From Octopus sinensis (lineage: Eukaryota), in assembly GCF_006345805.1 (NCBI RefSeq), contig NC_043003.1:16182001-16246000 (forward strand): 64,000 bases of DNA. The letters are read 5' to 3'. The notes under the pieces are model-generated. The model was not told the origin of the DNA. It worked only from the letters and a program-made list of their open reading frames with translations, and did no database searches. Positions 21,991-63,143 of the stretch are shown piece by piece. The translations under genes were made by a program, and so were the position numbers. The first letter of the stretch is position 1. Each line of letters begins with the position of its first letter.

Positions 21991-22229
21991 TATATATATA
22001 TATATATATATATATATATATATAATAATATTAGGGAATAAACCAAACTTACAGGGAAAATCAGATTTAGGATTGAATCCAATTTTATAGTAAATATTAT
22101 ATTATATTAATTAGAGACAAACCACTATTAGGCAAATCATACAATGAAAAACTTAAGCCAATACATAAGATTATTTAATTTATATTATTTAAACATATAA
22201 CAAAATTATCAAAAAAATATAATTAATAT

Positions 22230-22297
22230 ATCACTACGATCGTTTCATGGCTGTTAATTTCTTTAAATTTTCGAGTTACAGTCATTCATCAGGTGGT
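22230..22297 (-). ncRNA. Type I hammerhead in family-H repeat (about 22025-22300)
   Basis: Minus strand: accac-CTGATGA-atgactgt..acagccat-GAAA-cgatc-GTA-gtgat. Palindromic ACGATCGT helix III. Flank is homologous to 43102-43445 and 62826-63143. Confidence 0.75.
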
Positions 22298-24349
22298 TTA
22301 AATATTTATTGGATGTCTGTAAGTTACAATAAAAGCACACTTCCAGAGAAAATATGAGCAGTTCTGCTTTTATATTGCCGAGAAGCTAAATTCTATCCAA
22401 TAGCATTGGTTACCACTGGTTTCACACTTACTCTTGCAATAGGCAATATTGACGACTTTTCAGACATGCTGTCCGGAAACACATAGCATCTTTAAAGCTA
22501 GAAGTAAATATATTGTCCACACACACACACACGCACACACGCACATCTATCTATATTTATACATTCATGTATATATGTACGCGTAATATATGCGTATCTA
22601 TGAATATATTTATGAATGCATATGTATATATATGCATGTTTTCTTGTTATTTTTGATATTATCTATCTATCTATTTATCTATGTATCTATCTATCTAACT
22701 ATCTATCTGTATATCTTATACTTGTTGATGCCTAATACTATTTATATATGAAATGTTAATCTATTAAAACTCCCGAAGCTTTTCTACAGCTTCTTGAATT
22801 TTGCCTGTACGCAACATTTCAGGCAGAAACCGTATATAAGTCGATGTAATATCCAAGAGAAAGCTTGTAGATTTAGAGATCAGCTACACATTAGCTCACA
22901 TATATTCGCATTCGATCTCATACATGCATATATACGTTATGTATAAATATATATATATATATGTATATATATATGTATATTATATATGTAAGTATGTATA
23001 TATATATATATATATATATATATATATATATATATTATATATACATACACATACACACATATATGCATTTATATAGAAGTTCTCTTACGTAATTGATCAA
23101 ATTATCGGTATTTTCATATCAATCCATAATTCTGTGGTTCTTTCACACGCACACTTAGTCTTAAACACACGCGTGCGCGCGCACACACACATATACATAC
23201 ACACGTATACTAATATATGTATGTACATAAATATACAGACACATATACAGTTATATGTATGCATGTGTATTATAGGTACACATATGTATTATATACATAT
23301 ATGTGTATGTGCGTGTGGAAATGGATGGGTAGCGTTCAATGTAAGTATATATAAATAATATATATATAATTATGATATATAATATATATATATATTATAT
23401 ATATATACAATACATATACAACATACATACATATATATATATACATATACATACCATACATATATATATATATATATTATATACACATATATATATATAT
23501 ATATATATATATATATATATATATATATATATTAATTTACAAGATAAGGCAGAAGAAAAATTTAATGCCCTTATCTTGTAAATTATGTATAAATTTTACC
23601 TTTAAAGGCATTTTTTAATATGCTGGCCATTGATAAAATTTTTTTCCCGAAAAAAAATTTTTTTATCCTATATTAATTACATATAATATATTATATAATA
23701 TATATATATATATATATATATATATATATATATATTATATAATATATATATATAGCATATATGGGTACAGGATGTCACCAACAGTAAACAACATGAAATA
23801 CGAAAAGAAATGAGTTCAATATGCAAACAACGAGAGAAACAAATGGAAAACAGGACAAATAATACAAAGAACGCCCCTTCGTCAGTTGTCGGCTGCCTAT
23901 CTGCTCCTCATTTCGAGCATTGAACGACAATGTGAGTCTTCGAAGACAGTTTCTCTCATAAGTACCAAAATGAAATTTTGGATTTATGGAGGGTCAAATT
24001 TGGAGAAAAAAAAACAGGGCAGTGGAGACATACAAGGAAACCGAACGAAAACAAACACGGAGGGTTGTTAGACCAGAACAAGAGTAAAATAATGAACGCT
24101 CGAGAAATATTTTCTTTGACACACACACACACACACACACACACACACACACACACACACACACACACATATATGAATACGACGGACTTCCACACAATTT
24201 CCGCGTACTGAATTCACACCCAAGACACTGGTTGGCCCGGGGCTATATTAGAAGACGCTTGCTGAAGGTGTCGCGTACGCGTAGGGGGACTAAACCAGAA
24301 AGCACATGATTGTAAACTGATTTTCTTAACCATGCAGCCTCAATAATAC

Positions 24350-24986
24350 TGGACTTTAGCTGTTCTTTCTAGCGTAAAGGATTCCTATGATGGAAACCTC
24401 TTAATGTGTTTAAATGTACACTGTATTTTACATGAATAATATATAGTCTATTGACTAATTTTTTTATACGCTAGGCCACTGGTAGTAAAAATTTCTAAAA
24501 TCTTTATTACCCTGATATTATGTATAATGAGTTCCAGTAGATTCGTTCGAAGAATTTGCCGGCATCTTTTTGCTGCCGACAAAAATGACTGCGCTTGCGC
24601 GGTGGATTTGAAAAATATTAAAACGTATAAGTAATGAGTCACATGCTGGATTGGCCTCATTGTTTATATATTTAATCTTTGGCGTCTCTGTTGATGAAGA
24701 CTTCGCCTGGTAAATTATTTTATTTACTAAAATAAGTCAGAAACCATGGTCCAGGAAAGAGATGGTAAATGCTTTTATTTTTCATTGCCTTCGAGAATTT
24801 ATCCCTAATTAATGGTTTGGACTTTAGCTGTTCTTTCTAGCGTAAAGGATTCCTATGATGGATATCTCTTAATGTGTTTAAATGTGCATTATTTTATATG
24901 AATAATATATAGTCTATAGACTAATTTTTCTATACGCTAGGTCACTAGTAGTAAAAATTTCTAAAATCTTTATTACCCTGATATTA
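24350..24986 (+). mobile_element. Retrozyme/pLTR-like element: about 170-bp terminal direct repeats, 468-bp period, one hammerhead-like motif
   Basis: Repeats 24350-24520 and 24818-24986. Motif tctg-TTGATGA-agactt..aagtca-GAAA-ccatg-GTC-cagg at 24687-24755. Ends at (TA)n. Confidence 0.75.
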
Positions 24987-25285
24987 TTAATTATATATAT
25001 ATATATATATATAAGTAATTGTTAAAGGGGACAATGTTAAGGCAAAGCAAACATCTCAAGTCATATACAGTTGTTATACCGTCATATACCGTCTTGGCTA
25101 TAACCTTAGAGCCTTTATAATCTGTTACAGCACTTACATAGGGTACATAATCAAACTAAACCCCCATATTTTATATATATATATATATATATAAAGTTAA
25201 TCCAAACAAGAAAACACAAAAAAACACAACAACGCGAGGACGTGGAACAAATATAGTATTATTGGACGCTAAGGAAAGAAGGAGG

Positions 25286-60480: not shown

Positions 60481-61164
60481 TGGCGGGGAGCACCAACACA
60501 CCGTAATAAACAAAGATCGACGAACGGCGTTTTTTTAACGTATTTCACGATTCCTCGAGTTTATCTCTATGCAACGATATTATTTTAAAAATTACAGTAA
60601 ACCCACGTTAGTGACTAGGTGGCAGTTGGTGCGACGAAAAGTTTGGCACTTTTCTATGGCTGATATATGGACAATTTTCTATGGCTGATATGTGTCCGTC
60701 ATGCTGTAATTGTTTTAGTTTCAACATATGGTCTCAGACAAAATCACTTCCCTGACAAGTACACTTTCGAAATTACTTCTGCGTCTTATACAAAATCAGA
60801 ATTAAGTTCAACGAAGTTTGCTATTGATCCTAGCCTATCTCATGTCAGGTGTTAGGTTCTTGCCGCGGGGCACTAAACACAAAGTGCTACACCTAATTCT
60901 ATATGTCTAAGTACTCATCACTAATTCTGAAACCGATATTCCATTGATTCCTAAAAGACGAACTGGAAGCTAAAGACACTATGTTAAATACCTTTAAGCA
61001 TAGAAACTTTCATTCTGCCATCTGCATCCTAAGCACCAGGCTGACCAAAATGAATAAATTATAATGTACCATACATACGGGACCCCCTCCCCCCAAACAA
61101 CGATGAACGCCTACGTTTGTGTGTATTTATGTATATCGGTATTAGCGTAAGTACCCTATATATG

Positions 61165-61800
61165 TCATTATTCAGTTTTATTTCAAGATTTCTTGCCAAT
61201 AAAGAGCCGGTTTCTAACCAAGATCCAAGGTTCCTTCACTGGAATTTCAACATCAACAGGGTATTTTTGTGTGTATGTATGTATGTATGTATGTATGTAT
61301 GTATGTATGTATGTATGTATGTATGTATGTATGTATGTATGCATGCATGTATGTATGTATGTCTATGTGCAAATTTGTGTTTTGTTTTATATATGTATTC
61401 TCATGCATATAGTTGCAAGTCTAGATATACTCATATATACTTAAGTGATAAACTTCTGGAAAGTTTTACAGATTTTTGCAGTTCCTGTGGTTGATTGGAT
61501 CTGTAGTCTTCGAATTAGCTTTCTCCTTTCTGGTTTTGAGAAGCCTAATTTCTCAAGACTGGTTTTTAGGCAGTGAGTTACATATCCCAGGGCCCCCAAT
61601 AATTACAGGTATAAACCTGAACTTGTATTCTGGATAGACTAACTGCAGATTTCTCAATAGTTCAGAATAGGTGTTCTCTTTTTCACTGATATTCAACTTC
61701 ATGCTAAAATCCGTTGGGCAGCTAATTTCCACAACTGAGCACAGTTCCTCTTTATTCCAAATCATTATATCAGGTCTGTTGTGCTTACATTTTATTGAGG
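61165..61800 (-). mobile_element. RLE-type (R4/Dong-like) LINE 3' end, probably including the family-E repeat as its terminus
   Basis: Minus strand SIKCKHNRPDIMIWNKEELCSVVEISCP..KENTYSEL..FIPVIIG, followed by UTR, (CATA)n and repeat E. Confidence 0.75.
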
Positions 61801-62825
61801 TATATGTATGTATGTATTTCTGACATAGTTGTTAGGATGTTGAACTATCTCAAGTTCACGATTTCGATTCCCTCACCGGGTCCCGCGTTGTGTTTTTGAG
61901 CAAAACACTTAATTTCCTGCTATTCCAGTCCGCTCAGCTGCATATAACTCTGCAATAGACCGACGTCATGCTGCAATTTCTATCAGACCAAACTGCGAAG
62001 AAGCTTTTTTAGTTGTTATTCTTTAATCCCAGGTTAAATGTAGTCAAGTACACCTATAATAAAATGCGTTCCAACCGTGCCTATTCTGTCTTCGTGTATA
62101 TCAGAAATTACATTGTCAAAGGTAGACACATGAGGCCCCAGGCAAGTGCCCAGAGCGGCCATGCCTTGTAATGGCTCTTGTTTCACCCCAGATTGACCTT
62201 GATTGAGCAAACCTATAATAAAAAGCGCCACAGACGTAACAAGCTATTATTTTGTATTTTTATTAATTTATGAAAAGAAACTGCCTTCTAAATGTTATTC
62301 CTTTTTTCACAGGTGGTAGGACACAATACTCTTTCAGACGCGCACATACATCATAAATATATGCATACATACACACACACACACGTGCATACACACATGC
62401 TCGTATGCACAAATAGCTGTGTGGATAAGAAGCCCACTTTGCAACAACGTCGTTTCGGGTTTAATCTTGTATCGCGGAACCTTGATTTGACAACTAATGT
62501 TAGTTTGTTTCGTGTTAGTTTAGCAGTTCGGCAAACGATGCTGATGGACTAAGTACAAAACTTTAAAAAAAAATTAAGTATTTTTTATACTAGACTCTTC
62601 AAGTCGATGCTCCAGCATGAGCGCACTCTTATAACAGAAACAAGTAAAAGATGAAAGAGGATGAATAATTTTGTCATATATTTATCAATTTATGGCCTGA
62701 TCAGGGAATTTTTGATGATTAAATCATAATAAATTACACAGGTTTTATATTTTTTGGCAAAAATATTTGAATTTATACATATATATATATATATAATAAT
62801 AATAATAATAATAATAATAATAATA

Positions 62826-63143
62826 ATAGGGAATATAATTCTAAAACCCACAGGGAAAAATTCAATTTAACAATTTTAAATCAAATTTCACAATATATAT
62901 ATATATGTATATAATTTAGAGAAAAACCTCTATTAAGCAATTCAATAAAGAGAGATGTTATTTACAACATATAGAAAACATATACTATAAAAACCTTAAT
63001 CTAAAAATCAATAAAGTACAATATTTACTATTTATTGTACTTTAATGATTTAAAATAAGATTTTTTTGATAGTATATGTTTTCTATATGGTGTGAATAAC
63101 ATCTTTCTTTATTGAATTATTTAATAGAGGTTTTTCTCTAAAT
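62826..63143. mobile_element. Family-H fold-back, older copy lacking the hammerhead
   Basis: Imperfect 110-bp arms 62914-63023 / 63033-63143. AGGGAATA..ACAGGGAAAA..TTAGAGA.AAACC.CTATT shared with 22030-22130. Confidence 0.7.

Follow-up and report, generated by a model that had tools for sequence, protein, structure and literature searches.

Hammerhead-bearing repeats in a 64-kb window of probable octopus DNA as likely 3' ends of a Penelope-like retroelement family

A 64,000-nucleotide stretch of contig NC_043003.1 (positions 16,182,001 to 16,246,000 of the forward strand; hereafter the window, in whose own coordinates all positions are given) holds three related repeats, here called family H, which an original prediction made from the letters alone had described as one family captured in three states: with a hammerhead ribozyme that has a long helix II (copy 1, 22025-22300, minus strand), with a short helix II (copy 2, 43102-43445, plus strand) and with no ribozyme (copy 3, 62826-63143). 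Our analysis indicates that family H is very probably the 3' end of an endonuclease (EN)-bearing Penelope-like element (PLE), most likely of the Hydra clade and less likely of the Neptune clade, in what is probably an octopus genome. The clade can be given only as a best guess by analogy, because no coding remnant of family H was found and family H is not Hydra-1_Obim. We interpret the three "states" as different truncation and inversion outcomes of diverged subfamilies, and the repeats as the usual debris of mobile elements and not as a new conserved RNA. Family H would thus be a new family of a known kind, which Repbase, Dfam or an octopus repeat library may already hold.

Results

All three copies share a 3' body that, read in the RNA sense, ends in a TA-type microsatellite. 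Where present, the hammerhead comes first, followed by a body of 90-120 nt, an AT-rich internal site, a 75-90 nt stem-loop tail and the microsatellite, with 210 nt (copy 1) and 184 nt (copy 2) between the predicted cut and the microsatellite; in the table of Hydra-clade elements in Craig et al. (PMC8557442), the hammerhead row begins about 90-210 nt before the consensus end. Copies 2 and 3, on whose long inverted repeats the original prediction was silent, are arm-loop-arm hairpins with the tail on a single side, and their inverted arms both end at one internal AT-rich site and abut a simple repeat. The arms of copy 2 are identical at 103 of 103 positions and are therefore young or homogenised; those of copy 3 agree in 98 of 114 columns. 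The 25-nt spacer of copy 2 cannot be aligned to the sequence upstream of copy 1, and there is imperfect microhomology at the inversion junction. Four of the five family H termini lie within 15 nt of (TA)5+ or (TAA)4+ and the fifth lies at (CA)n; when neighbouring elements are included, 13 of 14 hand-placed termini are at most 15 nt from such a repeat (10.6% of the window). Hallmarks of PLEs are heavy truncation at the 5' end, a truncated and inverted copy alongside, a tail that is often present at one end only and insertion at (TA)n, and the Hydra clade, which includes one O. bimaculoides family, combines canonical 3' hammerheads with (TA)n targets (PMC8557442).

The plan of arm, loop, arm and extension recurs in unrelated families of the window, in which eight hairpins, picked by hand from a self-comparison, were catalogued; the window as a whole is AT-rich, dense in microsatellites and full of dispersed repeats. 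A hairpin is predicted in the tail of all three copies, with z scores of -2.2, -3.5 and -3.1 in segments cut around it and only -0.9, -1.3 and -0.6 in segments of 91-95 nt, so that its support depends on the segment chosen. Covariation in the tail stem-loop was considered and is not established (1 of 20 consensus pairs changed on both sides, covariation term unfavourable).

The two ribozymes have the coordinates and motifs that had been predicted for them. In copy 1 the core CTGATGA starts at 22292, the long helix II occupies 22285-22247 (minus strand) and ACGATCGT lies at 22243-22236, the predicted cut falling after 22235, i.e., between 22235 and 22234. The core of copy 2, CTGAAGA at 43234, is followed by a helix II of 5 bp (43241-43256, plus strand) and by ACAATTGT at 43260-43267, with the cut predicted after 43268, i.e., between 43268 and 43269. 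A descriptor scan found six intact hammerheads of this type in the window, against a mean of 0.05 and a maximum of 1 in 60 local dinucleotide shuffles. Both copies contain the core CUGANGA ... GAAA ... UH, and, as had been claimed, it is conserved between them (12 of 12 fixed positions identical, N7 alone differing). Across the three helices, with helix I open (3 bp long in copy 1, 4 bp in the other copy), 24 of 26 cells are paired. Two of the 13 pairs are changed on both sides (10.1-11.1, A-U/U-A; 15.3-16.3, G-C/A-U) and copy 1 has two broken pairs, where helix II contains an A.C mismatch and helix I has lost its fourth pair; because each broken pair is a single transition away from Watson-Crick pairing, both look like decay after insertion. 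The earlier statement that the helices differ yet still pair thus holds for 24 cells and for the retained palindromes, and fails at these two pairs. The helix III 8-mers of both copies are self-complementary and have no intramolecular fold; as intermolecular duplexes they reach -10.0 and -6.4 kcal/mol, and the cross-subfamily duplex is weak (-1.9 kcal/mol). As monomers the ribozymes are no more stable than shuffles (z -0.5 and -0.1). A short palindromic helix III and a variable helix II have been reported for the type I hammerheads of metazoan PLEs, which also occur as opposite-strand pairs 100-700 bp apart (PMC4209133); the cores at 21898 (plus) and 22292 (minus) form such a pair.

The sequence differences between the helices had been read as structural covariation and hence as selection on the RNA fold. 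The two compensatory pairs are there, but the covariation between copies 1 and 2 is suggestive and not significant: 133 of 500 shuffles reach two double changes and 73 of 500 reach the observed paired fraction. With two sequences only, the alignment has no power to detect covariation, and where power is lacking, failure to see covariation carries no information (PMC11234323). In a neutral simulation run post hoc, the values were 0.034 for two or more compensatory pairs, 0.067 for 11 or more of the 13 pairs formed, 0.009 for three pairs double-changed whatever their pairing and 0.05-0.11 for an untouched core. Compensatory changes have already been published for PLE hammerheads (PMC4209133). 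In folding calculations, helix I of copy 2 has a probability of 0.00 when the inverted arm is included. Two longer contexts that lack the arm give no more than 0.015, and only an isolated 51-mer reaches 0.57-0.71; the inverted arm is thus predicted to block helix I, and the genomic copies probably do not work as ribozymes. In the active retroelement lineage, selection on the fold is to be expected, and it has already been reported for PLE hammerheads (PMC4209133); the covariation between copies 1 and 2 is plausible and unsurprising, but unproven. Nothing points to selection on the present genomic copies, with two broken pairs in copy 1 and helix I blocked in copy 2.

That the three copies form one family is borne out by local alignment scores of 195 (copies 1 and 2), 81 (1 and 3) and 63 (2 and 3), compared with maxima of 53, 50 and 42 in 1000 shuffles, with the qualification that copy 3 is homologous to the others only over 62826-62945. 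The bodies of copies 1 and 2 align with 154 matches, 18 mismatches and 46 gap columns (154 of 172 ungapped columns identical), and copy 3 is ∼78% identical. When copy 3 is searched with a profile of copies 1 and 2, the match is confined to its last ∼120 nt (E 1.2e-4, with strong composition bias), which makes copy 3 a more distant subfamily. Alignments of its 5' 90 nt are no better than those of shuffles (394 and 619 of 1000 as good), and its apex cannot be aligned and hence cannot be placed at the cleavage site. As predicted, copy 3 has no hammerhead on either strand by descriptor scan and follow-up searches; it may have lost the ribozyme. Searches with nhmmer and a covariance model found no family H copies in the window beyond the three loci, and the tail motif has 0 exact matches among bacterial and archaeal genomes.

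Table 1. Parts of the three family H copies, in window coordinates
Feature	Position	Strand	Remark
Copy 1, 3' body from cleavage site to (TA)n end	22025..22234	-	no inverted duplicate
Copy 1, tail stem-loop	22057..22086	-	z -2.2 in segment cut around hairpin
Copy 1, type I hammerhead	22232..22296	-	long imperfect helix II, palindromic helix III
Copy 1, region 5' of ribozyme	22297..22530	-	reaches a (CA)n run
Copy 2, inverted tail-less duplicate of 3' body	43102..43204	-	abuts (TA)n
Copy 2, 25-nt spacer	43205..43229	+	5' end of direct arm
Copy 2, type I hammerhead	43230..43272	+	5-bp helix II, palindromic helix III
Copy 2, direct 3' body	43269..43445	+	ends at (TA)n
Copy 2, one-sided tail	43370-43445	+	stem-loop 43382-43411
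Copy 3, direct arm and tail	62826..63021	-	ends in (TAA)n
Copy 3, tail	about 62826-62905	-	stem-loop 62857-62889
Copy 3, small loop and inverted tail-less arm	63022..63151	+	ends at (CA)n

The region upstream of the copy 1 ribozyme may be a further part of the element; no second copy of it was found within the window, and no coding remnant was identified in it. A candidate endonuclease C-terminus in this region, noticed by eye for a weak resemblance to the C-terminal motif of Hydra elements, was dropped because it is wrongly spaced from a candidate CxxC, the motif scan missed it, the Pfam search was empty and phmmer returned just the one match given below.

Several other elements of the window carry hammerheads or hairpins. 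At 6269-6470 (plus) there is an intact type I hammerhead (core at 6339) whose helix III is full and whose helix II has a U.U opposition at its base; an inverted arm carries a second copy of it, the loop measuring 3 nt and the tail being on one side only. Next to it, at 6475-6719 (plus), a hairpin with a decayed hammerhead lies beside (TA)n and continues into the decayed, frameshifted start of a Hydra-clade open reading frame (ORF); this start, at 6889-6990, agrees exactly over 11 residues with the N-terminus of Hydra-1_Obim, an element of Octopus bimaculoides, and a second partial copy lies at 6984-7064. It is this match, together with the SINE-like element described below, that suggests an octopus host. 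Hydra proteins sought with the remnant near 6.9 kb gave no candidates. A minimal hammerhead of another family (21855-21985, plus; core at 21898) stands tail to tail with copy 1 at a common (TA)n. The hammerhead at 39324-39400 (plus), between TA runs, has a single core change (U4 to C), and its helix III resembles those in the Hydra table (PMC8557442). A further PLE-like family at 39451-40219 has an intact hammerhead with a long helix II (core at 39723, minus) and partial tandem and inverted pieces, and a ribozyme-less hairpin with tail at 35341-35646 is related to it. One more family is represented by an intact minimal hammerhead at 27483-27625 (minus; core at 27550) and a decayed copy at 1713-1855 (plus). 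Hairpins with one-sided extensions and no recognised ribozyme lie at 2688-2945, 15203-15300 and 43945-44075, and the extension of the last (43975-44075) recurs at 24393-24500 and 24873-24966. A short look-alike of the Hydra C-terminal CxH motif at 52052-52090 (plus), with no hammerhead nearby, is probably due to chance.

Copy 2 is located in the TA run that ends a Tc1/mariner-like transposase remnant at 42389-42949 (plus), whose match to DDE_3 is weak and falls below the cut-off (E 0.0008). By their motifs, we take 63537-63977 (plus), 13830-14165 (minus) and 51326-51637 (plus) to be remnants of Tc1/mariner-like transposases as well. An abundant, internally repeated element of ∼183 nt that resembles a short interspersed nuclear element (SINE) is found at 36932-37488, at 53975-54346 and at about ten other sites; it is presumably an octopus SINE.

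Discussion

A number of results weigh against the assignment of family H to the 3' ends of Hydra-clade PLEs. The Hydra-like ORF remnant in the window belongs to another family, so that the link of family H to Hydra is by analogy. The tail exceeds the published 30-40 bp, and Hydra-1_Obim, compared by eye, has a different hammerhead that lies nearer the end (PMC8557442). Motifs of family H were absent (0 of 5) from the examined part of the supplement of Craig et al. (PMC8557442); this and the differing hammerhead mark family H as distinct from Hydra-1_Obim. Upstream of the copy 1 ribozyme, Pfam returned 0 families in three frames, phmmer in one of the three frames gave a single 4200-aa match at 22% identity, and a motif scan found no convincing reverse transcriptase (RT), endonuclease or Hydra motif (RWK, DKT, CxCX5C, C-terminal CxxC/CxH). 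Rfam gave 0 matches at gathering score in the window, and E-value scans of copies 1 and 2 returned 2 and 4 chance matches and no hammerhead model. Lastly, pair 10.1-11.1 is A-U or U-A in family H, while it is usually G-C in PLE hammerheads (PMC4209133). The copies themselves are too short for an RT/GIY-YIG ORF to be expected in them.

A purified PLE protein nicks AT-rich DNA in vitro and extends both strands, starting at two RNA sites with the tail between them and with no need for ribozyme cleavage (PMC11167929). By analogy, a GIY-YIG/RT protein may nick (TA)n DNA and prime reverse transcription either at the tail end or at the internal AT-rich site of the family H RNA. Priming at the tail end would yield a single cDNA, as in copy 1 and likewise in the direct arms of copies 2 and 3; a second cDNA from the internal site, or a fold-back of the first, would give the tail-less inverted arm, and head-to-head joining through microhomology would produce copies 2 and 3 with their arm-loop-arm-plus-tail form. 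The extent of reverse transcription would decide whether an insertion includes the ribozyme. Helix III is palindromic and unstable and pairs only between molecules, which fits a ribozyme that cuts solely as a dimer when the active element makes tandem transcripts. Differences of the compensatory kind would have arisen between active subfamilies, and the genomic copies would now be decaying neutrally.

Within the PLE model, the three states could instead record ribozyme cleavage, with the RT running off the cut 5' end and the ribozyme-less arms beginning there. The exact match of the inverted arm of copy 2 stops 2 nt past the cut, and the apex of copy 3 lies ∼200 nt from the 3' end, close to the cut distances of 207 and 177 nt in copies 1 and 2. 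However, when one gap is allowed the copy 2 arm reaches about 4 nt further past the cut, which fits microhomology, the inverted arm at 6269-6401 spans its entire ribozyme (so that one of two hairpins with an intact ribozyme fits cleavage-defined ends), and the copy 3 apex is unalignable; moreover, the Anolis element mainly used uncut RNA, with no reads ending at the cut (PMC11167929). We therefore consider cleavage-defined ends unlikely.

A bolder proposal, which we think distinctly unlikely, is that the hairpin insertions are snapshots of an undescribed step of PLE integration, in which a paired ribonucleoprotein (RNP) primes both target strands and one cDNA runs off the ribozyme-cut end. Priming would then occur at the tail end and just 5' of the conserved tail stem-loop, with the two RNAs possibly held together by the palindromic helix III of the hammerhead; as the cross-subfamily duplex is weak, changes in the palindrome could act as subfamily-specific pairing codes. 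If such paired RNPs exist, the in vivo role of the PLE hammerhead, described as unclear (PMC8557442), would be readable from the genome as the making of 5' ends or as template pairing. The literature retrieved on inversion mechanisms contained, judged by title, nothing about PLE integration.

Non-long terminal repeat (non-LTR) retrozyme monomers, in which tandem hammerheads excise a small non-coding unit that becomes circular and is reinserted into DNA by a PLE enzyme, are a quite improbable source of family H. It would suit them that the type I hammerhead sits in a short AT-rich repeat that is non-coding, no ORF having been found, and retrozymes come from PLE pseudo-LTRs (pLTRs) and exist as monomers (bioRxiv 10.64898/2026.07.22.740005), but there is no head-to-tail array at any of the three loci (133 tandem-repeat rows for the window), the sequence 5' of the ribozyme does not repeat the 3' end, and the fixed 3' ends, one-sided tail and inverted arms suit PLE insertion.

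Very little speaks for a structured RNA of the host, its fold maintained in these genomic copies by purifying selection: the identical core, the two compensatory pairs and the retained palindrome would be expected of it, but the covariation does not exceed the shuffle control, two pairs of copy 1 are broken, helix I of copy 2 is predicted not to form with or without the inverted arm in its longer contexts, and the six hammerheads in 64 kb belong to several repeat families that are not related to one another. Miniature inverted-repeat DNA transposons or palindromic elements with a hammerhead captured by chance, suggested by the long hairpins of copies 2 and 3 beside TA and by the identical arms of copy 2, are extremely improbable, since the family is defined by a tail that is one-sided and not part of the inverted repeat, copy 1 lacks such a repeat and the apex varies between copies.

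Read as PLE debris, family H is a further hammerhead-bearing end among PLE families, probably from octopus, where PLEs are already known; in O. vulgaris, 31 families are listed as recently active (PMC13282606). Among the literature found on Penelope-like hammerheads in octopus and on cephalopod hammerhead ribozymes, only Craig et al. (PMC8557442) was relevant. Three copies are by themselves insufficient to inform PLE integration. The density of young, short, inverted insertions makes this genome suited to asking whether truncations cluster at the cleavage site, and the one-sidedness of the tail can be checked in it likewise; a positive result would bear on how PLEs integrate.

Among known systems, the metazoan non-LTR retrozymes are, like family H, small non-coding repeats with type I hammerheads, but they form head-to-tail arrays (PMC7229834), whereas the family H copies in the window are single or inverted. 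The Poseidon element PAc of Anolis carolinensis resembles family H in having an AT-rich target, a tail that separates two priming sites, and a stem-loop in the priming region; in PAc the ribozyme overlaps the start of the ORF and the start sites lie 111-118 nt into it, whereas the family H tail has no evident ORF (PMC11167929). The minimal and palindromic type I hammerheads of PLEs (PMC4209133) resemble those of family H in their core, short helix I and variable helix II, in a helix III that implies action as a dimer, and in their occurrence in dispersed truncated copies and opposite-strand pairs, with the helix II and loop of copy 1 unusually long by comparison. The EN+ PLEs of the Hydra clade (Hydra-1_Obim, Penelope-n_HM; PMC8557442) differ in that no ORF is attached to family H and that its tail measures 75-90 nt; with family H they share a type I hammerhead near the 3' end, a short helix III, (TA)n targets and inverted, 5'-truncated copies.

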